DNA of 64,000 nt, taken from positions 21,358 to 85,357 of the forward strand of contig JAVVFV010000005.1 in assembly GCA_039889305.1 (NCBI GenBank), in the 5' to 3' direction. Origin of the DNA: Candidatus Zestomicrobium tamdykulense (GTDB taxonomy: Archaea; Thermoproteota; Thermoprotei_A; Sulfolobales; NBVN01). The translations under genes and the position numbers were made by a program. Positions 9,072 through 34,830 of this stretch are shown here, piece by piece. Position 1 is the stretch's first letter, and the number at the start of each line of letters is the position of its first letter. Below the pieces are notes generated by a model that had not been told where the DNA came from, ran no database searches, and was given only the letters and a program-made list of their open reading frames with translations.

Positions 9072-9173
9072 GCGGGGGTGCCCGAGCCAGGTCAAAGGGG
9101 TCGGGCTCAGGTCCTAAAATGGTGGGAACCCCGATGGCGTAGGCCTGCGTGGGTTCAAATCCCACCCCCCGCA
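9072..9173 (+). tRNA. tRNA-Leu(CAG) with 17-nt intron at 37/38 (intron 9112-9128); no encoded CCA
   Basis: Acceptor GCGGGGG/CCCCCGC. Anticodon stem TCGGG/CCCGA with loop CTCAGG|intron|C. Long variable arm. T arm GTGGG-TTCAAAT-CCCAC. Discriminator A. Confidence 0.85.
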
Positions 9174-22161: not shown

Positions 22162-22239
22162 TGGCGGGCCCGCCGGGATTTGAACCCGGGACCTCCGGCT
22201 TAGAAGGCCGGCGCTCTGTCCTAGCTGAGCTACGGGCCC
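22162..22239 (-). tRNA. tRNA-Arg(UCU), CCA encoded
   Basis: The reverse complement reads GGGCCCG-TA-GCTC..GAGC-G-CCGGC-CTTCTAA-GCCGG-AGGTC-CCGGG-TTCAAAT-CCCGG-CGGGCCC-G-CCA. Confidence 0.92.
22223..22239. repeat. attL core: direct repeat AGCTGAGCTACGGGCCC (nt 1-17 of tRNA-Arg)
   Basis: Identical 17-mer at 33883-33899. It extends to 21 bp with one mismatch. Confidence 0.8.
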
Positions 22240-22260
22240 GATTTTTTTACTATCCGAACA

Positions 22261-22270
22261 TTTATATATT
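22261..22270 (-). promoter_or_regulatory. Putative TATA box now serving tRNA-Arg, supplied by the integrated element
   Basis: The minus strand reads AATATATAAA, 22-31 nt upstream of tRNA nt 1 (22239). Confidence 0.4.
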
Positions 22271-22298
22271 TCTTCCTCTCCTGTTTTCTTGATGAGCC

Positions 22299-23299
22299 GT
22301 GGAGAGGTTTAGTTATAGACATGCACTTTCTAAAAGAGCTCTGAGGCTATATGAAGATTACGCAGAAGTTAGGGCTTGGTTTGATGAGCTAAAGGTTTTG
22401 AGAAGTGGGAGAACAGCCCATGACTATTTGGATATGCTTGCGGGTTTTGTTGAAAGTTCTGGAAAATATCCTAAAGATTTAGTTAGGCTATCTTCCAACG
22501 AAGTATATGAAGTTTTGAGGAGATGGGCTTTATCTGAGCTTCGCAAAGGTTCCTACACCACTGGAAGACTTTACGTTTTGTGGAATGCTGTCAAAAACTT
22601 CTTAAAATTTCATGGAATTGAAGTGAAAAATAAACCGCCTTTTAAGAGAACTGTAAAATACCTGGACAAGATCCCAACGAAAGAAGAGTTAAGGCAAATT
22701 TTAAATGCGGCTTCAAGCCTTTCAACAAAAATCGCTATTGAGTTGATGTGTTATGGAGGGTTGAGACCAGAGGATATTTGTGATTTAACCTACGCAAGCA
22801 TAAAAATGATTTTGAAAAAGGAGTAAGTCCATGTGCAGTATTTGTTCCGCAGACAAAAAGCGACAGCGTCTACGTCACTTTCATACCAGAAACAACCGTT
22901 GAGCTTATTCACCAATATTTTAAGTTTAGGGAAAGCAAGAGAGAAAAAATAGTTGCTAAAAGCCCTATAATAGCTAACCCAAGATATCAAGGAAAAGGAA
23001 TTAGGAGAAAAACACTAACAGCAAAGATAGAAAGTGCTATTTCTAAAAGCGGAATTCAATCGCAGTTAACCCTTGGAAATAAGGTTCAGAGAATTAGACC
23101 CTACAGTTTGAGGAAATATTTCAGAAGCAACTTAACGGGACACGCTCCAAGCGAGTACATTGAGGCTTGGCTCGGCCACACCTCCGGATTGGAGCACGTT
23201 TACAGCGGAACAAGAGATTTAGACCCCTCCACAATTGAAAGAATGCGTGAAGTTTACAAAAGGTGCGAACCTTTCCTTTGGCCACAGCCCAACCATTAG
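22299..23299 (+). pseudogene. Tyrosine recombinase/integrase, interrupted by a single -1 frameshift near 22800-22822
   Basis: The N-terminal ORF (22299-22826) ends after the Arg-box YGGLRPEDICDL. The continuation is open in the -1 frame from 22784 and carries LRKYFRS, AWLGH and catalytic ..HVYSG. The shift lies in the A-runs ATAAAAATGATTTTGAAAAAGG. Confidence 0.8.
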
Positions 23300-24474
23300 A
23301 CCAAAATTCTCTAGTTACTGAAGCAAAAATAGAAGCCCTAAAAAGCATAGCAAAAAGCCTACTCGGCATAGATTTGCTGGAAGTTAAAATCGCTAAAGAA
23401 AAGGATGTTGGAAGAGAATTAAGCAAGGATGAAGAATTGGAGCTTTACGAGAAGGAGCTGAAAAAGCTCAGGGAAGGAAAACACAACCCACAAAGAATAG
23501 TGCACGAAAAAGAGCTTGAAAAATACTTGGCGGAAGGATGGCAATTCGTAAGTGTACTGCCCTCACGCAAAATCCTAATTAAAAAGCACAATGAATGGGT
23601 AGAAAATAATAAACTCATTTCTTGGGCTGAAAAGTTGGGCATAAAACTAAATGCAAATGGGAAGCTTGATGAAGGGCAGCTGTTTCAATTGTTTGTTCTT
23701 GCCATTTTATGGAATAACAAACCGACTTATAGAGCTGAGATGGGGGAGAAAATATTCAGGGAGATAAAGAGCGAGTATACCCTTGATAACTTTCAAAGAG
23801 CAGCTCAAGATAACAATATGGAAAATAGGATTAGGGAGATCGCAGCTGAGATCATCCGTAATACGCAAGTCTACAAATTGTTAATGTTCATTGCCAATGA
23901 AACACTTAATGGAAAAAACATTTGGACAATGATCAAAGAAATGCTTGAATTCCCCGTTATTGGCAATGAAGAAGATGATCTGAGAAGGTTAAAAGGACTC
24001 TATAAACTCTTTAACCCTCCATGCCATGATCGCAAAGCATTCCTCACTGTGAAAACCTTCATTATTTTTAGGGAAATTCGAATACAGTTTAGAGAAGTTG
24101 GAAAATATCAGTATCACCCGGTGATTTGTTGTGTTCCTGATAGTAATGTAAGAGAAGCACTAAAAGGTCTCGGTATTCTGGGTGATGTTAAAAATGATTT
24201 AAATAGCATGATAATGGCAAGCCGACTAATGGCGGACGCATTTTGCACAGAAGAATACGAGCTATACGATCTTCCTCTATTCTTTTGGCATAAAGAAGAG
24301 GGCAAATACCCTTCAATTGGATTCAGTAGCACGCAGCCAACGAAAGGCAAATATGCTGGAGTTTGCCCAAAATGCAGGTCACCTCTGGTGTGGCGTAGAG
24401 CTAAACGCACAAACGAAATTTACAGGGGCTGCACTAACTTTCCACATTGCAGATGGAACGATAGAAGCTATTAG
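23263..24474 (+). CDS. Hypothetical protein with C-terminal topoisomerase-type C4 zinc finger; central region weakly HhH-GPD-like
   Basis: C-terminus CPKCRSPLVWRRAKRTNEIYRGCTNFPHCRW matches the zf-C4_Topoisom pattern. The central LFQLFVLAILWNNKPTY...CVPDSNVREALKGLGILG is reminiscent of EndoIII-like glycosylases. The start overlaps the integrase 3' end, so the true start is uncertain. Confidence 0.55.
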   Translation: MRTFPLATAQPLDQNSLVTEAKIEALKSIAKSLLGIDLLEVKIAKEKDVGRELSKDEELELYEKELKKLREGKHNPQRIVHEKELEKYLAEGWQFVSVLPSRKILIKKHNEWVENNKLISWAEKLGIKLNANGKLDEGQLFQLFVLAILWNNKPTYRAEMGEKIFREIKSEYTLDNFQRAAQDNNMENRIREIAAEIIRNTQVYKLLMFIANETLNGKNIWTMIKEMLEFPVIGNEEDDLRRLKGLYKLFNPPCHDRKAFLTVKTFIIFREIRIQFREVGKYQYHPVICCVPDSNVREALKGLGILGDVKNDLNSMIMASRLMADAFCTEEYELYDLPLFFWHKEEGKYPSIGFSSTQPTKGKYAGVCPKCRSPLVWRRAKRTNEIYRGCTNFPHCRWNDRSY

Positions 24475-24532
24475 AACGATCTACCTGCAAGTTCATGCTT
24501 CTGTTAGGAGACATAAAAAGAAAATGGATTTT

Positions 24533-25036
24533 CTATACACTTTGCTTGGTCTCCTTTAAAGCTTCGCTGATTTGGCGATGGAAGAAAATAAAGATGATAA
24601 TTGTTGCAGAAGCTGTGTAGCTCGCAACGAGCAGCATGTTCATCATGTTAAATGCACTTAGGACGATATAAGATGCTCCTGCAATGATGGCTGCTCCAAG
24701 GATGGAGTAGATGCTTGCGGTCTTCCAGGCTCCCCATTTACGTGCAAGCTTTAGCCAACTCTTCCATTTCAGAAAGTCTTTTAACCTCAATGGCTCTGAA
24801 AAATCAGTCTCTTCAACCGCCTTGGCCAGTTGCTCATCCATCTCTCGCTTTTGAACAGCCATAACCCTCGGTAACATAGCAATACATGCCATACCTCCCA
24901 CAACGAGAAGAATAAAGGCTAAGAGGGCTTGGCCGAGAAGGGCCAAAGCAAAAACAGAGAGCATAAGAAAACCCACAATAGCCCCTACGTAATGGATCTT
25001 ATCCCGTTTTCGATGAGCCTGCCTAATGGAAAGCAC
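24533..25036 (-). CDS. Four-TM membrane protein, unknown function
   Basis: Two hydrophobic hairpins separated by a charged loop (QKREMDEQLAKAVEETDF). GTG start. Confidence 0.55.
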   Translation of the reverse strand: MLSIRQAHRKRDKIHYVGAIVGFLMLSVFALALLGQALLAFILLVVGGMACIAMLPRVMAVQKREMDEQLAKAVEETDFSEPLRLKDFLKWKSWLKLARKWGAWKTASIYSILGAAIIAGASYIVLSAFNMMNMLLVASYTASATIIIFIFFHRQISEALKETKQSV

Positions 25037-25241
25037 TACTGCAAAGACGCATAGAACAGCCAGAAAGAGAAAGGCGGATCCATTGAATATACGCCATGTT
25101 CTTTACTTCATCTTATCTAACTATTATTGTTTTTATTAGCATTTATGGCTTAGTTTTTGGTATCTTTTTGCAGAACAACATATCCGTTACGGGCAGAGTC
25201 CAGCTAATGCGCAGCTACGTAGCAACCAGGTTCTAGGTCTA

Positions 25242-25640
25242 TCAAGAATGGCGAGTGCGCTTCTCCAGTTTGTCTCCAAGGTAGGCTCCTAGTAAGTAAC
25301 AGGGTAACGCCAAGAATGCTGAGCTATCTGCACTTAAACCGAACACATGCCTTAGGGCAATCACGGAGATCCCCCATAAAAAGAAGCCAATCCAGAAAAT
25401 GCCGCCGAGGATGAAGATAACTCGACGGGTAATCTGCCATCTTCGGGGAGAGGTCCAAACGAAACGTCGGAGAGCGTAAGTTGAACCTACGAGCAACAAC
25501 GCGATGGCTGAGAATTTGACAGCTGTTTGGAGAGGAACATGGCCAGTCATATACCCCACCCACGAAATTATGACACAGAAAGTTAGAGCGATTAGACTGT
25601 AGAACAGAATTCGAGCTTTCCAGTAATTAGGCTTTCCCAT
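25242..25640 (-). CDS. Four-TM membrane protein, unknown function
   Basis: 132 aa with four hydrophobic segments. It lies directly downstream of the Cys-rich paralog. Confidence 0.55.
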   Translation of the reverse strand: MGKPNYWKARILFYSLIALTFCVIISWVGYMTGHVPLQTAVKFSAIALLLVGSTYALRRFVWTSPRRWQITRRVIFILGGIFWIGFFLWGISVIALRHVFGLSADSSAFLALPCYLLGAYLGDKLEKRTRHS

Positions 25641-25752
25641 CTTACCCTCACCTATTGTTTAAGTAAAAAAATAAAAAGGTTATGTGCATGGTTCAGACAT
25701 AGCAACTTAAGCCCACCCTCTCAGAGGTTGCAGTAGCATGTCTAAAAGGTCG

Positions 25753-26526
25753 TTACCCGCCACAACTGAGATAGCACACTATGTCACAAAAGTACCCCCA
25801 ATAGTCCCATCCGTAAGTTAACAGGTATAAACAAGCTACCAATAAACCACCGTAAGTTACAACGCCGCCAGCAAGGCATGCCGCTACTATCAACCCATAA
25901 GCACCCCAACAAGCGATATGACAGAAAAGATTACACCAGAAGTCGTCCATCAAGACTGCGGAGCTTTTGAGGATTTCTCTATCATATTCTTGTAGTTGTT
26001 TTCCTACCAGCCTAGACAGATATTTGGCTTCTTTCTCCATAGTGTAGTAGCCTTCTGCAAGTTGCATCAGCGTTTCGTCTCCGCTCTTCTCGTAGACCTT
26101 ACCTACCTCTTTGGCGACTTTGCCTAAGACGGCGTATAGTTGCGATAAAGTAACGGAAGAATTAAACTCGACAAACTCTAGTGATACGAGTTCAGATTTG
26201 CCTGCTGGCGCATAATTCATTACTGTGAAAGAGTGATTGTAGAATTCTGAGTTTTGTGGCGTAAGCGTTGTTAATAGGGTTAGGTTATATTCACGTTGCA
26301 CTATGTAGCTTAGGCTGTAGAATTGTATGGACGTTTTTTCTGCGGCGATTTCTGTGCAAACGAAGCTGGCTGTTCTGTTAATTTCATCTGTAAGTTCGTT
26401 ATAACTCCAAAGTAAAGTTTGGGTGACTGTCACTTCGTAGGCATCATCATCTACTTCATACGTTATCAGCGTTACTGTTTTGTTTTCGTTCTGTTCTATT
26501 GTTGTGGCTGTGATATTTGATGGCAT
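25753..26526 (-). CDS. Paralog of the sequon-rich domain of 26731-28137, with an 8-Cys hydrophobic C-terminal tail
   Basis: It aligns by eye to aa 200-385 of the larger protein (TVTLITYEVDD..YEVTVTQTLLW, QFYSLSYIV, FNSSVTLSQLY..LGKVAKE). The tail is FWCNLFCHIACWG...FCDIVCYLSCGG. Confidence 0.7.
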   Translation of the reverse strand: MPSNITATTIEQNENKTVTLITYEVDDDAYEVTVTQTLLWSYNELTDEINRTASFVCTEIAAEKTSIQFYSLSYIVQREYNLTLLTTLTPQNSEFYNHSFTVMNYAPAGKSELVSLEFVEFNSSVTLSQLYAVLGKVAKEVGKVYEKSGDETLMQLAEGYYTMEKEAKYLSRLVGKQLQEYDREILKSSAVLMDDFWCNLFCHIACWGAYGLIVAACLAGGVVTYGGLLVACLYLLTYGWDYWGYFCDIVCYLSCGG

Positions 26527-26561
26527 GTTAATGTTTGGGTATACCCAAAGATGTAACTCTA

Positions 26562-26723
26562 TTAAGTTTGTGTCGTTCTCTCTCGTATCAGCATAATTAT
26601 GCCAACAATAGCCATAAGTGCAAACAGAACTAGACCTAATGTTCTTTGGAATATTAGGTTTATCAACGCTCCAGAAATACCGAGGACAACCATAGACAAA
26701 GCAAGCCCTTTTGACTTCTGCAT
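26562..26723 (-). CDS. Small two-TM membrane protein (53 aa; the track ORF extends to 26786)
   Basis: MQKSKGLALSMVVLGISGALINLIF..LGLVLFALMAIVGIIMLI. The internal ATG avoids a 56-nt overlap with the upstream gene. Confidence 0.45.
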   Translation of the reverse strand: MQKSKGLALSMVVLGISGALINLIFQRTLGLVLFALMAIVGIIMLIRERTTQT

Positions 26724-26730
26724 CTGTTGC

Positions 26731-28137
26731 TTACCCCATTGGGCAGTCAATCCAACCCATAAATTCAGCGCACATGCAACAGGCATAGACGTGAGAAGCG
26801 AGACTTATTATACACGCCGAACAAGGTATTGTTATACAACCAATGCACCACCAGATAGTAAATATGGTTGCGCATGCAACAGCACACGCAGCACATGTAG
26901 CGCATAAAGGCACGGATAGATATGTTGTAAGTATCAAGCCTACGCAGAAGAAACAATCCCATATGTTGCCGCCATCTGCCAATAGTACAGAGCACTGGAT
27001 AATTTTTTTGTCATATACTTCGAGTTTTTCTTTTACTATTTTGGACAAGTGCTTAGTTTCGTCTCCTATGATGTAGTAATTTTGTGCAAATTGTCTAAGT
27101 GTTTTATCTTCGCTTTTTCCATAGGCTTTCCCCAACTCCTTGGCAACTTTACCCAACGCGAAATAGAGCTGTGATAAAGTAACTGAAGAATTAAATTCAG
27201 CAAACTCTAATGATATTAATTCAGACTTGTGTGCAGGTACATAGTCAATGATTGTGAATGAACTATTGAATGTTATAGAATTTAATTGCGTGAGCGTTGT
27301 GTGTATGGTTAAGTTGTATTCCTCATGATGAACAATGTAGCTTAGGCTGTAGAATTGTAGGGATATGTCTTCCGCCGCTATCTCTGTTGAGATGAACTTA
27401 GCTGTTCTGTTGGTTTTAGTGCTTGCCTCGTTATAATTCCACAGCAAAGTTTGGGTGACGAGCACCTCATAAGTTGTATCATTGGCTTCGTATGTTACAA
27501 GCGTTACCGTGCGTACTTCATCCTGCTCAAGCGTTGTAACCGCAATGTTTAAGGGTGTATTAGTGCTCGGAAGTTCTTGGTCTTGAGAACAGGATTGACA
27601 AACACAAGATGAGCCACTGGTTTGATATAGAAGTATAGGCTCTATGTTCGCCGATATATGTTTGCCAACAACGTTCACCGTAACATAGTGATAAGTGGTG
27701 TATATTGGGTAGCCTGCTTTTATCCATGCGGTTATTCCGCCGAGCATGTTGTAGACTTTTGTGAAGCCGTTGCTGGCGAGGATTTGGCATGCAATTTGGC
27801 TTCTTGAACCAGCCTTACAGTAAACTATTATTGGATCGTTTATATGCTCTTGCAGTTCGCTTATTCTATCTTCAAGCTCGTAAACTGGTACAAGAACAGC
27901 GTCATATAAATGCCCGAGATTGTATTCGCTCTGGTTTCTAACATCCAAAACAAGGCTTACTGTGCCTTTCTTTATCATTTTGTAAGCTGCATCAACGCTT
28001 ACGTCCTCATAAGCTCCAGCCCAAGACGCTTCAGCAAAAGCCTCAGGCACTGCAACAAAAGCAAGCAACAACACAGCCACAAGACCAACAGCAATCAACC
28101 TCTGACCACGCATCTCCAAAACAGAATAGGCCTTCAC
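26731..28137 (-). CDS. Secreted rhodanese-domain protein fused to a sequon-rich domain and a 15-Cys hydrophobic C-terminal tail
   Basis: Signal peptide RLIAVGLVAVLLLAFVAVPEAFA. Rhodanese region LVLDVRNQSEY..IIVYCKAGSRS..GGITAW. Many N-x-S/T sequons. The tail is CATCAACAVACATIFTIWWCIGCITIPCSACII..ACCMCAEFMGWIDCPMG. Confidence 0.75.
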   Translation of the reverse strand: MKAYSVLEMRGQRLIAVGLVAVLLLAFVAVPEAFAEASWAGAYEDVSVDAAYKMIKKGTVSLVLDVRNQSEYNLGHLYDAVLVPVYELEDRISELQEHINDPIIVYCKAGSRSQIACQILASNGFTKVYNMLGGITAWIKAGYPIYTTYHYVTVNVVGKHISANIEPILLYQTSGSSCVCQSCSQDQELPSTNTPLNIAVTTLEQDEVRTVTLVTYEANDTTYEVLVTQTLLWNYNEASTKTNRTAKFISTEIAAEDISLQFYSLSYIVHHEEYNLTIHTTLTQLNSITFNSSFTIIDYVPAHKSELISLEFAEFNSSVTLSQLYFALGKVAKELGKAYGKSEDKTLRQFAQNYYIIGDETKHLSKIVKEKLEVYDKKIIQCSVLLADGGNIWDCFFCVGLILTTYLSVPLCATCAACAVACATIFTIWWCIGCITIPCSACIISLASHVYACCMCAEFMGWIDCPMG

Positions 28138-28319
28138 CTATATACCTCCCTTAAATTCTGTTTTTTAGTATATAAAACTTTTGCAACTAATAATAAAACT
28201 CAATCCCAAGGCGAAACTTGCAACGTTAAAAATTTGCAATACCGCCTGTTCTGTTAGTAACGTTTAACCGAGAGGTTTAAATATTGCTGTCTTTCTGTTT
28301 TTCTGTTTGGGGGTGTGTT

Positions 28320-28760
28320 ATGGGAACTATAAGAAGTGAATATTCTATCGAGCAGTTTGAGGCTGCCCTGCAACGTTTTGCGCATCAGATTACTGACATG
28401 ATGCAGAGGATAGACAAGATGCACGTTAGTTCAGAAAAGATGGATGTCGACTTAGAATTCAGCTACGGCGTTAAAGGCGAGGTAATGAAGATATACGTGT
28501 CTTTTTACAAGAGGGATAAGCCGGACTCATGGGGAGAGTCGCTATCCTTCACAGTAGAGCCTAAAGACTACGTTGACAGCCCCCACATAACAAAAATCCA
28601 CTATGAAGGGGCAAACGACAAGCAGTACAGCGAGAAAATCCTAACATGGCTTAAAAGCCTCCTAGGCTCAGAAAAGCCTGCAGTATCCTTCTCGTTGAAG
28701 GATTTTTCAAAGAAGGTCAACAGGCGCCTTACAGACTACAAAGCTTTTTCGAAGGGTTAA
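28320..28760 (+). CDS. Hypothetical protein
   Basis: The ORF has protein-like composition and is first of three tightly spaced plus-strand genes. I prefer the start at ATG 28320. Confidence 0.5.
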   Translation: MGTIRSEYSIEQFEAALQRFAHQITDMMQRIDKMHVSSEKMDVDLEFSYGVKGEVMKIYVSFYKRDKPDSWGESLSFTVEPKDYVDSPHITKIHYEGANDKQYSEKILTWLKSLLGSEKPAVSFSLKDFSKKVNRRLTDYKAFSKG

Positions 28761-28762
28761 TC

Positions 28763-29173
28763 ATGGAATCCCTCGTAAGAATGTTTAGGGAATCCCTCTT
28801 CAAAGCATTTTATGATTGGCTTGAGAAGAATAAGACCGTTATAGGCGAGAAATGGTATGTTTATGCCTTCAACGAGGCTAAGAGGGCTGAGGATTTAGCC
28901 GACAACGCAGTAGGCATAATCGGCGCAGCCATGTGGATGTTCAACACGATGGCCAACTGCGGCGTAATGGCAGGTGTAGGCCCAAACGGATACAGCCTAC
29001 AATATCTGGAAAACACGAAAATCGACGAAGCCTCAACAAGAAGGCTCCTAACAATGATTGTGGCTTGCCTAAACCTTCAATACCTGCCCATTGAAGAGGC
29101 CAAAAAGCAAATCCCAATAATTAGCCGTGGCAAGTTTTCTCTGAAGCTTTTTGTTGAGGATAGGAAATCATAA
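28763..29173 (+). CDS. Hypothetical protein
   Basis: The ORF starts 2 nt after the previous stop. I recognise no motif. Confidence 0.5.
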   Translation: MESLVRMFRESLFKAFYDWLEKNKTVIGEKWYVYAFNEAKRAEDLADNAVGIIGAAMWMFNTMANCGVMAGVGPNGYSLQYLENTKIDEASTRRLLTMIVACLNLQYLPIEEAKKQIPIISRGKFSLKLFVEDRKS

Positions 29174-29208
29174 ATACCAGCTTGTGACATTGGGTTTATG
29201 GTGTTGGT

Positions 29209-29397
29209 ATGCCTAAGGGACCTGAATGGCTGACGGTTAGGCTGACTCCTGAGCTGATGGAGAAAATGAACTCTTATCTTCTGGCTGTGGCAAACAGAAT
29301 GGGACGCATACCCCAAGGGTTAAAAACCAGGATAGTGCATGAAGCCCTCGAGGAATGGTTCAAAAACCACGGCAGTGACCTCGAAAGGTTCACATAA
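29209..29397 (+). CDS. Ribbon-helix-helix (CopG/Arc-like) DNA-binding protein
   Basis: LTVRLTPELMEKMNSYL..., a beta-strand followed by two helices in 62 aa. Confidence 0.6.
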   Translation: MPKGPEWLTVRLTPELMEKMNSYLLAVANRMGRIPQGLKTRIVHEALEEWFKNHGSDLERFT

Positions 29398-29444
29398 CTT
29401 TTTCTATTTGGGGTGAAGCCCGTTGCCTAACAAACTCGGCTCAA

Positions 29445-29660
29445 TTATACTTTCCGCCTGTATAGCTCGCATTTCTCCGCAAAGTAGGGTGGAAGCTGGT
29501 CTGGCAGGACAGCGTTTCTGGGACACTTGTAACGTTTAACTATTTGCCCAGTGCTTGAGTCACCGCCCACCGTTTGTTCGAGAAGGCTGCAGCTCCAGCA
29601 TCGCGTCTTCTCTATTGGAACTTTAACTATGGTTTTAACCCTTCCCATGCAACCCCTCAA
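29445..29660 (-). CDS. Small Cys-containing (zinc-binding?) protein
   Basis: CWSC ... KCPRN ... KCELY spacing. It is the last gene of the minus-strand RadA/ParB operon. Confidence 0.4.
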   Translation of the reverse strand: MRGCMGRVKTIVKVPIEKTRCWSCSLLEQTVGGDSSTGQIVKRYKCPRNAVLPDQLPPYFAEKCELYRRKV

Positions 29661-29670
29661 CTTTTACATA

Positions 29671-29829
29671 TTAGGGGTGTGAAACCCGCTTCAGCCCTTC
29701 CTTAATTATTCTGTTGTATTTCTCGATGAGGGCTGAGTAGGCCTCCAAGTCCAAAGCCATCCGCTCAAGCTTCTCAGTGAGGGCCAAAAGCCTCCCATTA
29801 ACGTCCATGGTGTTGGCCCTTTTCAGCAT
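29671..29829 (-). CDS. Small helical ORF (52 aa), below the track cutoff
   Basis: My own translation is MLKRANTMDVNGRLLALTEKLERMALDLEAYSALIEKYNRIIKEGLKRVSHP. It fills the gap between the ParB-like gene and the Zn protein. Confidence 0.3.
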   Translation of the reverse strand: MLKRANTMDVNGRLLALTEKLERMALDLEAYSALIEKYNRIIKEGLKRVSHP

Positions 29830-29945
29830 TTAGGTGTTTTTCAACAGTTTCTACTGTGAGTTTTCCCCTTTCTGTGCGCCAAACTCCAGTTTTGTCTTCC
29901 ATGCCGAAAACGTCGGTTCTAGCGATGAAAATTTGGAAAAGCCTG

Positions 29946-31016
29946 TCAGCCAATGACTGGCTCTTCAAAACCTTTTTCTCCGGCCATTTTTATGGCTTTC
30001 TGGGCTACTTCCTCCCTCTCTTTTTCAGTTAGTTTTTCCCAGAAGACAACGAAGATTGATGCTTTAATGACGTCTTTCAAGTATTTGCCTTTGTATCTTG
30101 TGTATATGTAGTCGATTAGAATCATCGGGTAATGTTCTTTCAACTCCATGACTTTTTTGAAAGGCTCTTCAGGTGGCGCTGTTGCTTTCTCGGCTTCTTC
30201 TACAAGCAGAGGCTTTGGAAGATCAACAATTTTTTCAGCTAACTCTGGTTTTTGAGCCATCGCCTCAATAACCTTTCGAGCTTCTTTTGGCTTGAGTTTT
30301 TCACGTTTAACAACTTTAACGACTTTAACTGTTTTTTCTGGAGGTAAACCTTTCTCGATGGCTGCTTTGGCGAGTTGAGCCTCCCTTGTGGTTAGCTCTT
30401 CCTTCACAATAACCTCAGCTAATGCTTTCTGTTTTTCAGGCTCTATAACTGAGCCGATGATCTCGTAATGGAGGGGTGACAGCGCTGTCATCCCTGCTAA
30501 TAGCGTTTTTGCTTCCGGCGAAACCCTAACCCTACAAAGTATGCGTTCAACTTCTCTGTGGCTTATTCCAAACTTTTCAGCCATCTGGTCTATTCTCATC
30601 TTTTTAACTTCATGCAGATGGCGGAAGTATGCTGCCTCGCGAAGCGGGTCAACCGTTCCCCTCGCCTTGTTCTTCTTATAGTTTATTTCCAGCGCTTCTT
30701 CAGGTGTGCAGTCGGTTATTATGGCTCTTATCTGAGTCCAGCCGAGCTCCCTTGCGGCTCGCCAGCGTGAGTGCCCATCTACTATTTGGTATTTGGCTTG
30801 GCTCCACGGCTGCTTAGCCTTTATTTGGGCTATTTCTTCGGGTGTCAGCCTCCTTAGGAGGATTGGGTCTATCCTGTATAGACCTCTTGACTCCAGCCTT
30901 GTCATGTCTGTGCGCAGCATCATGTCCTCTTCTCTGCCTATGGCTGTGATGTTGCCTGGCAGTGGGATTATCTGCTCGAGGGGTATGTGCTCTATGCGCT
31001 GTTCACTCTGGGACAT
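29946..31016 (-). CDS. ParB/Srx-like N-terminal domain protein with HTH
   Basis: YQIVDGHSRWRAARELGWTQIRAII (ParB box) followed by HTH RIDQMAEKFGISHREVERIL. It overlaps the radA-like stop by 14 nt. Confidence 0.8.
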   Translation of the reverse strand: MSQSEQRIEHIPLEQIIPLPGNITAIGREEDMMLRTDMTRLESRGLYRIDPILLRRLTPEEIAQIKAKQPWSQAKYQIVDGHSRWRAARELGWTQIRAIITDCTPEEALEINYKKNKARGTVDPLREAAYFRHLHEVKKMRIDQMAEKFGISHREVERILCRVRVSPEAKTLLAGMTALSPLHYEIIGSVIEPEKQKALAEVIVKEELTTREAQLAKAAIEKGLPPEKTVKVVKVVKREKLKPKEARKVIEAMAQKPELAEKIVDLPKPLLVEEAEKATAPPEEPFKKVMELKEHYPMILIDYIYTRYKGKYLKDVIKASIFVVFWEKLTEKEREEVAQKAIKMAGEKGFEEPVIG

Positions 31017-31959
31017 CCTCTACACCAGCCTTTGTTATCATGAATTCCGTTGCGGCTCGTGGGAGGTAGCTGCTGGCTATGAGTGTTGCAACTCTCCTTG
31101 TTCCGGGTCCTATGGTTAGGTAGACGCGGTTTCCAATCATGTGGCTTACAACGTGTCCTCCAACAGGCGGGTTTAGAACCTCCGGCCTAACGTCATAGAC
31201 GTATCCAACGGGCGAGGCTAGAACCTGCTCGGTGGTTATGACTGCTATTCTGTAAACGCGTGCGTAGTTGAGGAGAAGCCTCAAACACCTGTTTATCAGC
31301 TGTTGTCGGGGGGCTAGAAGCTCCCTTCCAGGATATTCGGCTCTGAAGGGCGATACGAGGCTGTCAACGATGATTAGGCGGATGTTCCTTTCCCTTATGG
31401 GCTTGTGGGCGTTTTCAAGCAGGAATATCAAGTGCTCGCTGCTGTAGACTTTTGCATAATTCACCAGGGGGCATGTTTCTTCAGGGTTTAGGCCTCGAGC
31501 CTCAGCCATTTCATAGAGGCGTTTTGAGGAGAAGCTTCCCTCAGTGTCAAAGTATAATACGTTTCCGCCTAATCCGCCCTGCTCTGGCTTAAGCTGGGCT
31601 GTAACGCAGAGCATTAGGCAAAGCTGGGTTTTTCCAGAACCATACTGCCCCACAAGCTCTGTTATGGCCTGGGTTTCTATGCCTCCGCCTAAAAGATTGT
31701 CAAGGGCCTTGCTTCCAGTTGTGCACCTCAGCCTTCTTTTTGTCATTTCCCAGTGTTCGTAGGCTGTTATGAAACTGCAGCCTAAAGCCTGCCTTGCAGC
31801 CTCCACTATCCGTTGGGCAGCCTCAAGCTTTTCATAACCAGCCTTCTCCTTAACCTCCCTAGCTGGGGTGACAGCCAAAGTTTCAACGTTTGCAAAGCCG
31901 GCGTCCCTAAGCCTTTTGGCTATGGATTTGCCCACGCCAGGAATCTGCTCTAACTCCAT
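31003..31959 (-). CDS. radA: Full-length RadA-like recombinase (HhH N-domain + RecA core)
   Basis: LEQIPGVGKSIAKRLRDAGF (HhH), TTGSKALDNLLGGGIETQAITELVGQYGSGKTQL (Walker A), LIIVDS (Walker B), PVGGHVV. The ATG at 31959 lies 2 nt after the upstream stop. Confidence 0.85.
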   Translation of the reverse strand: MELEQIPGVGKSIAKRLRDAGFANVETLAVTPAREVKEKAGYEKLEAAQRIVEAARQALGCSFITAYEHWEMTKRRLRCTTGSKALDNLLGGGIETQAITELVGQYGSGKTQLCLMLCVTAQLKPEQGGLGGNVLYFDTEGSFSSKRLYEMAEARGLNPEETCPLVNYAKVYSSEHLIFLLENAHKPIRERNIRLIIVDSLVSPFRAEYPGRELLAPRQQLINRCLRLLLNYARVYRIAVITTEQVLASPVGYVYDVRPEVLNPPVGGHVVSHMIGNRVYLTIGPGTRRVATLIASSYLPRAATEFMITKAGVEDVPE

Positions 31960-31961
31960 CT

Positions 31962-32135
31962 CTAACCCTCCTTTGAGTGCGTGTGTTGGCCCCATTCAAT
32001 GTTGGTTTCTGCTATTTTGCTCCAGCAACGCCTGCAAATCGGAAGCCTATCACCCTTATAGACTATGAACACTTCTATGTCGGTGTTTCTGCATTTACCA
32101 TTCCATGGATTCCTACAACGCTCAATCCTAGACAT
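31962..32135 (-). CDS. Small Cys-rich zinc-finger-like protein (57 aa)
   Basis: MSRIERCRNPWNGKCRN...LPICRRCW. Only the C-terminal part of the 145-aa track ORF looks protein-like. Confidence 0.4.
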   Translation of the reverse strand: MSRIERCRNPWNGKCRNTDIEVFIVYKGDRLPICRRCWSKIAETNIEWGQHTHSKEG

Positions 32136-32382
32136 GTGTTCCACATCTCCTTGCTGTTTTCCAGCCGTTACCATGCAAACCAGCTTTGGCAAACTCTCTA
32201 ACAATTTCAATCTGATGATTTTGTAGAAACTCCTCAAGAGCTTCTTTCTGGCTTTGCCAATCATACTCATGGCTTGTAAATTTGCCCCAATAATGCGGAT
32301 GCCTATGCAGAAGCTGCAGGAGTAGTTTACGCTGGAGAACCGATAAGCCCTCAAGCTCCAAGCCCAAAGCTTCGGAGAGCAT
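32128..32382 (-). CDS. Small helical protein (84 aa), first gene of the RadA/ParB operon
   Basis: Protein-like composition (LSVLQRKLLLQLLHRHPHYWGKF..). Its stop overlaps the next start by 8 nt. Confidence 0.45.
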   Translation of the reverse strand: MLSEALGLELEGLSVLQRKLLLQLLHRHPHYWGKFTSHEYDWQSQKEALEEFLQNHQIEIVREFAKAGLHGNGWKTARRCGTHV

Positions 32383-32539
32383 AGGCGCTCAGCCTCCAAC
32401 CCAAAATTAGCGGTTTATGAAAGACGCTATAAAAAGGCAACGGCGAATCGACCTTTTTGAACAGTGGAGAGAGATAAGTTAAAGTGAAGTTTTGCACCTT
32501 ATTAATGCTGTATATTTAACCCTAAGGAGAAGCCGGAAA

Positions 32540-33205
32540 TTGAGTACACTTAAAAGGCAGGAAAGGAAAGCTGTGGTGACAGGAATCTCTGCAGCTGATG
32601 CAATAGACAGATATAGATATCGCCTTTCAAAGGAGTTGGGCTCAACAAAAGTTGAAGATAAAGGGCAATATGTACTTATGCATGAAAGGGTTCGTCTTCA
32701 AAACAAAGACTTTATGGACATTGTAGTTTATACAACAGACCGCATATACATATCTGCTTCTCCTTATGTGTCTGTGGAAAAATTTAACGAAGTAGCCACC
32801 AAAATTGTTCGTATAGCACAGGAAAGCGTGAAAATATTGGAGGAACTTCGTCCTATAACATTGTCAAGGGCTAAGAACATTTTGGAGTTCACTCTAAGAT
32901 TGAATGTTGAAGATGAATTTCAAAGAATGGTGGTAGTTATATTGGCTGACACAATAAATGAAATAGTTCTTAGGGAGGAAATGAAGGCAGCGGGGATTGA
33001 AGGGCCTCCTTTAGACGAGGGCATCCCTGAGAAAATAAAAAGGCTTAAAGATAAAGGAAAATTCATTCCTGAAGAAGAAGGAGTGAAAAATATTAGGGAG
33101 TTAAGAAATGGCATAGTCCACCGCGGAGACATCCCTGATAAAACTGAAGCTGCTAAGGCTCTAGAAATCACAAAAGCCGTGCTTAAGTGGTGCTTGAAAG
33201 AATGA
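32540..33205 (+). CDS. Protein with C-terminal HEPN-like Rx4H motif
   Basis: IRELRNGIVHRG sits in a helical C-terminal region. I prefer the TTG at 32540, preceded by AGGAG and a TATATTTAA box, but the track start at 32492 is possible. Confidence 0.55.
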   Translation: MSTLKRQERKAVVTGISAADAIDRYRYRLSKELGSTKVEDKGQYVLMHERVRLQNKDFMDIVVYTTDRIYISASPYVSVEKFNEVATKIVRIAQESVKILEELRPITLSRAKNILEFTLRLNVEDEFQRMVVVILADTINEIVLREEMKAAGIEGPPLDEGIPEKIKRLKDKGKFIPEEEGVKNIRELRNGIVHRGDIPDKTEAAKALEITKAVLKWCLKE

Positions 33206-33849
33206 CTGTGGAAAAAGTAAGCAAATATGAGGTAATAGTTGGTTCAGACGAGGCTGGAAAGGGCGAATGGCTAGGTCCATTGACGGTCGCAGCAGTAGCA
33301 CTTACGCCAGAGCAGAGCTCATATTTGGTTACACAAGGTGTGATGGATAGTAAGGAATTAAAAATTGATAGAATCATGGAGTTGTCTGGCATAATCAGGA
33401 AGGAATGTTTAAGCTATCATGTCATTGCCATAACCCCGAGAAAGTTTAACATGCTATTGAGGGAAGTGAAGAAGGAGGGAAAAAGTTTAAATGATATATT
33501 GGCTTGGGGACATGCTAAAGCAATATATGAAGTTTACCGGGAGCTGCAAAACAAGAAAATTTTGGGGAGAGTAAAGCTGGTGATTGATGAGTTTGACAAA
33601 TTAAAAACTGAGGAACGCTTAGGCAGGGTTCTTAAGTTAGCAAATTTTGACATAGAACAAAGACCACACGCAGAGGAGGAAACAGCAGTTGCAGCTGCAA
33701 GTATACTTGCTCGTGCAACAAGAGAATTTTGGATTGACGATGCTTCCAAGCGTTTACATTTAGATTTAAGAAAGCTTTCGGCGTCTGAAGCGTTAACCCT
33801 TAGGGATGCGGAATATTTTGCCAAAATAAGTTTTCTACATCCTATATGA
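33202..33849 (+). CDS. Type 2 RNase H-like protein, closest by eye to the RNase HIII catalytic domain (no N-terminal TBP-like domain)
   Basis: GSDEAGKGEWLGPLTVAAV, MDSKELK, ITPRKFN..LNDILAWGHAKAI, LVIDEFD, HAEEETAVAAASILARATREF. There is an ATGA start/stop overlap with the upstream gene. Confidence 0.7.
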   Translation: MTVEKVSKYEVIVGSDEAGKGEWLGPLTVAAVALTPEQSSYLVTQGVMDSKELKIDRIMELSGIIRKECLSYHVIAITPRKFNMLLREVKKEGKSLNDILAWGHAKAIYEVYRELQNKKILGRVKLVIDEFDKLKTEERLGRVLKLANFDIEQRPHAEEETAVAAASILARATREFWIDDASKRLHLDLRKLSASEALTLRDAEYFAKISFLHPI

Positions 33850-33882
33850 ATACCTATGTTCGAATAGGATTTTTCCTATCCA

Positions 33883-33899
33883 AGCTGAGCTACGGGCCC
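33883..33899. repeat. attR core: second copy of AGCTGAGCTACGGGCCC (orphan 5' fragment of tRNA-Arg)
   Basis: Identical to 22223-22239. Confidence 0.8.
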
Positions 33900-34554: not shown

Positions 34555-34830
34555 TTATGGTGGTTGTGGGTTTAAGTATTTTTGTTTGAATGCTTTTTCT
34601 AGGTCTATTGAGAGTAGGTTGGCTAGTGATGCTAACCATGCTAGGACGTCTGCTATTTCGTCTTCTTGTGCTTTTTTGTTTTTGTTTAGTATTGATTCTG
34701 CTAGTTCACCTATTTCTTCTATGAGCCACGTGAATGTTGCGTATACCCCTCTTTCACGATCTCTCTGTAGGTAGTACTTACTCATTAATTCCTGTACTTC
34801 TCTTAAGGTTATTTCTTGGTGCATTTTCAT
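34555..34830 (-). CDS. Small MazG-like nucleotide pyrophosphohydrolase
   Basis: FTWLIEEIGELAESI...EDEIADVLAWLASLANLLSIDLEKAF, the typical MazG four-helix motif, in 91 aa. Confidence 0.75.
   Translation of the reverse strand: MKMHQEITLREVQELMSKYYLQRDRERGVYATFTWLIEEIGELAESILNKNKKAQEDEIADVLAWLASLANLLSIDLEKAFKQKYLNPQPP

Follow-up and report, generated by a model that had tools for sequence, protein, structure and literature searches.

A mobile archaeal gene pair encoding an RnlA-like HEPN protein and an RNase HIII catalytic core

The closest described relatives of the gene pair reported here are HEPN ribonucleases connected with RNase H. In Escherichia coli, RNase HI binds the TBP-like NRD domain of the RnlA toxin, and the activity of RnlA as well as its inhibition by RnlB depend on this RNase H (PMC5308261). 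The TBP-like domains of RnlA are most like the N-terminal domain (N-domain) of RNase H3, and one of them is required for substrate binding (PMC8266594); in RNase H3 itself this domain is specific for RNA/DNA hybrids and holds the substrate between itself and the catalytic domain (PMC4132731). Why RnlA should need RNase HI has stayed unexplained (PMC5308261, PMC8266594). Here we analyse a 64,000-nucleotide stretch of the archaeon Candidatus Zestomicrobium tamdykulense (contig JAVVFV010000005.1, positions 21,358 to 85,357; ‘the window’), in which two overlapping genes, referred to as A and B, encode a protein of RnlA-like layout and an RNase HIII catalytic domain, respectively.

Single-chain combinations of this kind are on record. 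Anantharaman et al. described in 2013 HEPN proteins of the RNase LS family fused either to an RNase H of type 1 (caulimovirus-type) or to a TBP domain like that of RNase HIII, and predicted that the fusions act on RNA in DNA-RNA duplexes; the family was listed as bacterial (PMC3710099). As of the same year, archaeal RNase HIII was known from a single species (PMC3597702). In eukaryotic RNase H2, a type 2 RNase H works together with accessory subunits (PMC2615623). The archaeal A-B cassette is a new arrangement of these known parts, with a type 2 RNase H and the activities placed on separate, coupled polypeptides. An earlier note on this DNA, written from the sequence alone, had called the pairing novel. 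That holds in so far as our literature search found no paper pairing HEPN with RNase HIII; it was overstated in that the RnlA/LsoA combination of TBP-like and HEPN domains and the RNase H precedents had been missed (PMC3710099, PMC5308261).

Domain content of genes A and B

Gene A is an open reading frame (ORF) on the plus strand (32492-33205) that encodes 237 aa if read from its first TTG. Its homologues all start at the equivalent of the TTG at 32540 (MS.LKR.ERKA...), and the homologue-supported form (32540-33205, plus strand) accordingly has 221 aa and an RnlA-like organisation, a TBP-like N-domain followed by HEPN. The N-domain (residues 1-100; 32540-32839, plus strand) has the TBP-like order beta-alpha-beta-beta-beta-alpha, while the C-terminal HEPN domain (32840-33202, plus strand) is all-helical. 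The catalytic motif R189-N-G-I-V-H194 (RNxxxH; 33104-33121, plus strand) lies within residues 186-197, IRELRNGIVHRG. Among the 38 aligned homologues of the family, R189, N190 and H194 never vary, nor do D137 and E141 of a preceding helix, and RNxxxH is kept in the distant relatives P0177, P0200 and P0214. The C-terminal domain thus carries the Rx4-6H motif, with N following R, by which HEPN domains are recognised. Sequence databases add little to this: none of the 37 close homologues found has a Pfam annotation, sub-threshold matches to HEPN_RiboL-PSP occur in 26 of the 38 family members (best 6e-5), and the family profile returned nothing from PDB sequences even at E<=10.

An AlphaFold2 model built on the family alignment (predicted local distance difference test score, pLDDT, 93.8) shows a beta-alpha-beta-beta-beta-alpha domain at residues 8-96 and a helical bundle with pLDDT above 90 at residues 105-218. 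When the whole chain was compared with the PDB by Foldseek, the top matches were E. coli RnlA, an RnlA NRD-HEPN fragment and LsoA (prob 0.7-0.97). The C-terminal domain matched 2hsb (prob 0.99, TMt 0.67) and the HEPN toxins 8xeh and 8xdj (0.92-0.97 for the two, 0.97 for 8xeh), and the N-domain of the whole-protein model separately resembled TBP-like folds. Against the viral predicted structures of BFVD, the top match was an ‘RNaseLS-like protein’, followed by TBP-like proteins of giant viruses (prob 1.0). The N-domain modelled alone (pLDDT 93.3) again led Foldseek to TBP-like folds, with LsoA (0.95), RnlA (0.82) and TBP among them.

Gene B (33202-33849, plus strand) encodes 215 aa that match Pfam RNase_HII (PF01351) with 2.5e-23 and 83.4 bits, over the cut-off of 25.8. 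The RNase HIII model TIGR00716 scores higher (93.4 bits) than the RNase HII models, which reach 59 bits or less (TIGR00729, 59 bits). The rnhC equivalog cut-off of NCBIfam (161.2 bits) is not reached, because the match spans only positions 82-252 of the 284 in the profile and the N-domain is missing. Indeed, the protein starts 12 residues ahead of GSDEAGKGE, leaving no room for a TBP-like domain (DUF3378) on the same chain. Its nearest solved structure by sequence is the RNase H3 of Thermovibrio ammonificans (4py5, 2e-17), with which it has GKGE in common, whereas Methanocaldococcus jannaschii RNase HII has GRG. The DEDE site is complete: D16 and E17, encoded at 33247-33252 (plus strand), and D129 and E158 further downstream are invariant in 92 gene B homologues. 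Gene B has 57-63% identity to many archaeal proteins of 279-317 aa, which have an extra N-domain of about 75 aa, detected in some of them as PF11858, the RNase HIII N-domain. It nests among these full-length relatives and is therefore a member, shortened at its N-terminus, of an archaeal clade of RNase HIII. An ordinary housekeeping RNase HII ortholog, also considered as an identity for gene B, was ruled out by the lower HII scores, the DEDE site, GKG and the placement in the HIII clade.

The domain that gene B lacks has a probable counterpart in gene A. PF11858 found no match in the gene A N-domain in a Pfam search. Profile-profile comparison by hhalign of 100 gene A N-domains with 51 archaeal RNase HIII N-domains gave Prob 85% and E=6e-6 (reversed-sequence control, P=0.08). 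The 53 aligned columns stand in the register that was expected, with YV..H.RI / DVIVYTTD.IYIS of gene A opposite YE.FRIK / LVVGYTSGKIV of RNase HIII. An earlier hhalign run with small alignments had been marginal (E=0.035), and significance was reached only with the larger ones. Because of this alignment and the structural matches, the data support reading gene A as an RNase HIII-type TBP-like domain fused to HEPN, in effect a ‘mini-RnlA’ with one TBP-like domain.

The two genes overlap in an ATGA at 33202-33205 (plus strand), where the stop codon of gene A (TGA, 33203-33205) shares bases with the start codon of gene B (ATG, 33202-33204), an arrangement of translational coupling. The earlier note had described much of this, and all the motif strings and ORFs that it quoted are present in the sequence. 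The Rx4H motif that it pointed out in the upstream protein proved real, being invariant in the family and borne on a HEPN fold in the model; its RNase HIII-like reading of gene B, with DEDE and no TBP-like N-domain, was borne out by the model scores, 4py5 and the homologues; and the ATGA coupling seen here recurs as a 4-nt overlap in related loci. It had also speculated that an N-terminal segment of A could play the role of the missing RNase HIII domain, an idea that gains support from the TBP-like fold, the hhalign result and the finding, described below, that short B occurs only with A.

Linkage and joint evolution of the pair

Metagenome contigs were scanned with the gene B alignment and the best 80 loci were used to count linkage; a short-B locus, with B devoid of the N-domain, was taken as assessable when it had enough upstream DNA, and four loci were reclassified as long forms. 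Short B is obligately linked to A: gene A lies directly upstream on the same strand in 48 of 48 assessable loci. The co-occurrence across genomes that the earlier note had asked for was found. The junction is most often a 4-nt overlap (22 related loci), with a 3-nt gap in 13 others. Conversely, among nine loci recovered through gene A, eight have gene B directly downstream, and only Candidatus Borrarchaeum has a solo A. The pairwise distances of the two proteins are correlated (r=0.92, 43 pairs), and A diverges faster than B (0.50 vs 0.39). The possibility that A and B are unrelated genes brought side by side by chance in this genome is effectively refuted by more than 55 loci with the same order and strand, mostly with a 4-nt overlap or a gap of a few nucleotides, by linkage that persists at about 20-25% identity of A, and by the co-divergence of the two proteins; we give it practically no credence.

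Full-length RNase HIII was found with gene A in nine loci and without it in 21. When the catalytic domains were placed in a neighbour-joining tree, the short B sequences grouped as one clade, with the A-associated long forms dispersed outside it. Since the short forms are a single clade with A-linked long forms outside, the association of A with RNase HIII appears to be older than the loss of the N-domain, which probably occurred once, in a lineage that already had A. A simple fission of an RNase HIII gene was also considered as the origin of the pair and is ruled out by the nine or more loci in which A stands beside a full-length RNase HIII that keeps its N-domain.

The association reaches beyond the close homologues. 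P0200, P0214 and P0190, distant relatives of A that match its profile with E 1e-9 to 1e-24, are each followed by a gene of the RNase_HII family encoding 290-391 aa, with a 4-nt overlap in two of the three. P0222, which matches only the HEPN part of A, has no RNase_HII-family gene after it. We found no third conserved gene near A-B, only antisense shadow ORFs and, in six loci, an IS-type transposase; nor is an RnlB-type antitoxin gene conserved beside A, gene B being its sole conserved neighbour.

A second explanation is a classical type II toxin-antitoxin system in which A would be a HEPN toxin and the downstream B, like rnlB, would neutralise it by binding, with RNase H chemistry secondary. 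The unit is compact, mobile, translationally coupled and of two genes, A resembles the RnlA and LsoA toxins, and RnlB cannot inhibit RnlA in E. coli without RNase HI (PMC5308261). The DEDE site of B is nevertheless invariant, which is unexpected if it acts only by inhibition; B is also better conserved than A, has relatives that are widespread as stand-alone enzymes, and is devoid of DNA-binding or labile-antitoxin features; and A is present without B in Borrarchaeum. Because the site of B is invariant, B evolves more slowly than A and a solo A exists, we disfavour a pure toxin-antitoxin system and consider it quite improbable.

Several individual loci deserve mention. The solo A of Candidatus Borrarchaeum weybense (L004:9995-10657) is a full-length homologue with 55% identity and an intact RNDIVH; it has no RNase HIII gene within 10 kb and is flanked by histidine-kinase genes and a convergent gene. 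Four loci have a second, divergent A-like paralogue beside the A-B pair (E 1e-25 to 1e-32 against the A profile), at L016:4678-5346 (minus strand), L017:1743-2516 (minus), L048:4714-5385 (minus) and L046:533-1366 (plus). These paralogues lie convergently downstream or in tandem upstream of A-B and have no RNase H partner of their own; such a paralogue could be a HEPN heterodimer partner. In Bathyarchaeota BA2 (L008:814-1478) gene A is broken into two frames near position 1104 and gene B is intact, owing either to a frameshift, which would make A a pseudogene, or to an assembly error. P0222, the most distant, HEPN-only relative, divergently adjoins an RNase III gene (L093:3208-4627), with CARF-like and HepT-like genes nearby, and is another neighbourhood that combines HEPN with a second RNase. 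P0190 is followed by an unusually long RNase_HII-family protein of 391 aa (L094:876-2051), which has extra domains.

Mobility, distribution and the integrated element

DNA similarity between the window and its closest loci is confined to 32522-33847, that is, to exactly the two genes (83% in L011 and L012, both hot-spring metagenome contigs, and 78% in Bathyarchaeota BA2), and identity between the copy in Desulfurococcaceae and that in Bathyarchaeota BA2 is 83-86%. Carriers were found among Desulfurococcaceae, other Thermoprotei, Bathyarchaeia, Nitrososphaerales, Hadarchaeota and Asgard archaea (Njordarchaeota and Borrarchaeum). We conclude that the A-B pair moves as a discrete cassette between archaeal phyla. 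Among the families that recur beside the pair, the most frequent are DNA methylases, a BglII-type endonuclease, GmrSD, IS240/rve transposases and integrases. No PHROG matched A, and B had only a weak match to one of unknown function.

In the window, the pair belongs to an integrated element of about 11.6 kb (22162-33899) at a tRNA gene. Its left-hand attachment site is an intact tRNA-Arg(TCT) gene (22162-22239, minus strand), next to which lies the N-terminal half of a truncated, XerA/phage-integrase-like tyrosine recombinase (22299-22826, plus strand; PF00589 with 3e-5 at profile positions 4-51 of 172, and NF040815 at positions 12-140 of 263). On the right, a 24-nt direct repeat (33876-33899, minus strand) copies the 5′ end of the tRNA-Arg gene with 22 of 24 matches and begins 27 nt past the stop codon of gene B. 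The element is bounded on the strength of the tRNA gene and integrase on one side and of this repeat on the other. A TATA-like sequence beyond the repeat suggests a remnant of the original tRNA promoter left behind. The attR-proximal position that the earlier note had assigned to the pair is thus confirmed, A-B lying at the far end of the element. A 403-aa element protein (23263-24474) ends in a topoisomerase-type zinc ribbon, and its N-terminal segment is encoded, with 83% identity, directly downstream of A-B in L011 (1730-3034, minus strand) and L012 (4436-4750). Because a homologue of this protein adjoins A-B there, related elements appear to carry the cassette.

This mobility has to be set against a third explanation, in which A-B is a housekeeping heteromeric RNase HIII: in its carriers, A would be an accessory subunit of the RNase HIII that belongs to the cell itself and would help to remove primers or R-loops, its HEPN domain would trim RNA flaps, and mobility would be incidental. 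Such a role would fit the fully conserved active site of B and its slower evolution relative to A, and related archaea commonly encode a full-length RNase HIII with no A beside it. Several A-B neighbourhoods are purely metabolic, defence databases gave no matches, and the accessory subunits of eukaryotic RNase H2 provide a precedent (PMC2615623). A housekeeping enzyme would, however, hardly be expected to be distributed so patchily: a pattern scan, which gives a lower bound, found matches in at least 6 of 185,579 species genomes, and an exhaustive search of 1.84 billion representative proteins with the gene A profile yielded only 82 clusters. The genomic context is also unconserved, homology breaks exactly at the cassette ends, identity is 83-86% across different archaeal classes, and the pair in the window sits inside an integrated element. 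We regard a housekeeping role as unlikely, if somewhat less so than the toxin-antitoxin system above. Since the cassette is mobile and patchily distributed, a conflict role, in defence or in maintenance of the element, is favoured over housekeeping.

The element holds other cargo. On the minus strand, a ParB-like gene (29946-31016) and a gene for full-length RadA (31003-31995) overlap; this RadA passes the NF003301 cut-off (313 vs 259 bits), and its region has 51% GC vs about 42% elsewhere. A RadA-ParB operon is an unusual cargo. A 94-nt direct repeat with 77% identity (26291-26384 and 27323-27416) is common to two adjacent minus-strand ORFs, 25753-26526 and 26731-28137, the latter with a rhodanese domain, and these ORFs may share a paralogous segment. 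Just beyond the right end lies a small MazG-like nucleotide pyrophosphohydrolase gene (34555-34830, minus strand), after which come DUF432 and MscS genes. Elsewhere in the window, Rfam (46 bits) but not ARAGORN recognised a tRNA of 102 nt at 9072-9173 (plus strand), probably an archaeal tRNA with an intron.

Possible function and comparison with known systems

We think it reasonably likely that A and B are two subunits of one RNA-degrading machine acting at RNA:DNA hybrids. Through translational coupling the two proteins would be made in fixed proportion and would then associate. The TBP-like domain of A would provide B with hybrid binding in trans, B would cut the RNA strand within the RNA:DNA hybrid, and the HEPN domain of A, taken to be a catalytically competent endoribonuclease and probably dimeric as in other HEPN RNases, would cut single-stranded RNA attached to the hybrid or near it. 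The cassette would most likely serve its carrier element or the host in conflict, for example by destroying the replication or transcription intermediates of invaders or their transcripts, in analogy to the RnlA toxin with its requirement for RNase HI.

A number of observations weigh against the two-subunit machine or against parts of it. At the sequence level, the gene A protein of the window scores only 15.5 bits with HEPN_RiboL-PSP, under the cut-off of 28.4, and a Pfam search gave no match to the RnlA families. At the level of structure, RNase H3 chains are absent from the top 50 Foldseek matches of the isolated N-domain, and its TM-scores to TBP-like folds are only about 0.5; because the RNase H3 N-domain is outside the top 50, the predicted fold would support ‘TBP-like’ in general and not RNase H3 specifically. 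As for linkage, the count of 48 of 48 reflects a single ancestral loss and not many independent events, the nine pairings with full-length RNase HIII mean that A is not merely the detached domain of B, and one Borrarchaeum genome has A alone. The genomic surroundings are heterogeneous, with many ordinary metabolic genes. PADLOC (PADLOC-DB 2.0) gave no match at E<=1 for A, B or three homologues, and no A homologues were found in IMG/VR, the GenBank phage collection or the PLSDB plasmids, searches that leave a viral or plasmid origin unsupported. With no PADLOC matches and mixed neighbourhoods, the defence or toxin function put forward in the earlier note is no more than plausible.

A more specific version of the two-subunit machine, which we entertain only tentatively, takes A-B for a hitherto unrecognised archaeal immune or addiction module that senses RNA:DNA hybrids, for instance those formed when viruses and plasmids replicate or are transcribed, via a TBP-like domain derived from RNase HIII and responds by RNase H and HEPN cleavage of RNA. 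If so, a partnership like that of RnlA and RNase HI would have evolved independently in hard-wired form, and B would be the first type 2 RNase H with its substrate-binding domain transferred to a second nuclease subunit.

Whatever its role, the cassette matters in several respects. In more than 55 loci an RnlA-like TBP-HEPN protein has become firmly tied to an RNase H in the course of evolution, and this linkage provides independent comparative evidence that such HEPN RNases work on or beside RNA:DNA hybrids together with RNase H. As a small, thermostable two-protein system, A-B lends itself to biochemical and structural study of the RnlA-RNase H puzzle. RNase HIII, long thought almost absent from archaea (PMC3597702), is now seen in many lineages of archaea, full-length in some cases and split in others. 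The pair is also a candidate for a mobile module of conflict in archaea, organisms with defences that are still poorly mapped, and it appears to be a case in which a type 2 RNase H has passed its substrate-binding domain on to the nuclease that is its partner.

The closest parallel among known systems is RnlA/LsoA. Like A, these proteins place TBP-like sequence ahead of a HEPN RNase domain that bears the Rx4-6H motif; they are encoded in mobile operons and serve in phage conflict; and they have a link to RNase H, which for RnlA is functional and physical, via the TBP-like NRD (PMC5308261), and for A is seen as gene linkage. The differences are equally clear. A has one TBP-like domain instead of two, is shorter than RnlA (221 vs 357 aa) and has no detectable sequence similarity to RnlA Pfam or PDB sequences. 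Its partner gene is an RNase HIII catalytic core and not RnlB, and the RNase H concerned is of type 2 and co-encoded, whereas that of RnlA is the type 1 RNase HI of the host.

The RNase LS-family fusions likewise combine HEPN with RNase H, an RNase HIII-like TBP domain or both. They are single polypeptides with a type 1 RNase H in a family listed as bacterial (PMC3710099), whereas A-B is archaeal and consists of two coupled genes with a type 2 enzyme (HIII), a partner that has lost its own TBP-like domain. B shares with canonical RNase HIII (Bacillus, Aquifex and Thermovibrio; 2d0a, 3vn5 and 4py5) the catalytic domain, DEDE and GKG in place of GRG. Unlike these enzymes, it is devoid of the N-terminal TBP-like substrate-binding domain, and an apparently homologous domain is found on the upstream HEPN-fused protein; in the main clade of A-B, the hybrid-binding domain would reside on the HEPN subunit only. 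Eukaryotic RNase H2 also combines a type 2 catalytic subunit (A) with separately encoded accessory subunits (B and C), but these are unrelated to gene A and have no nuclease domain, and the complex serves housekeeping.

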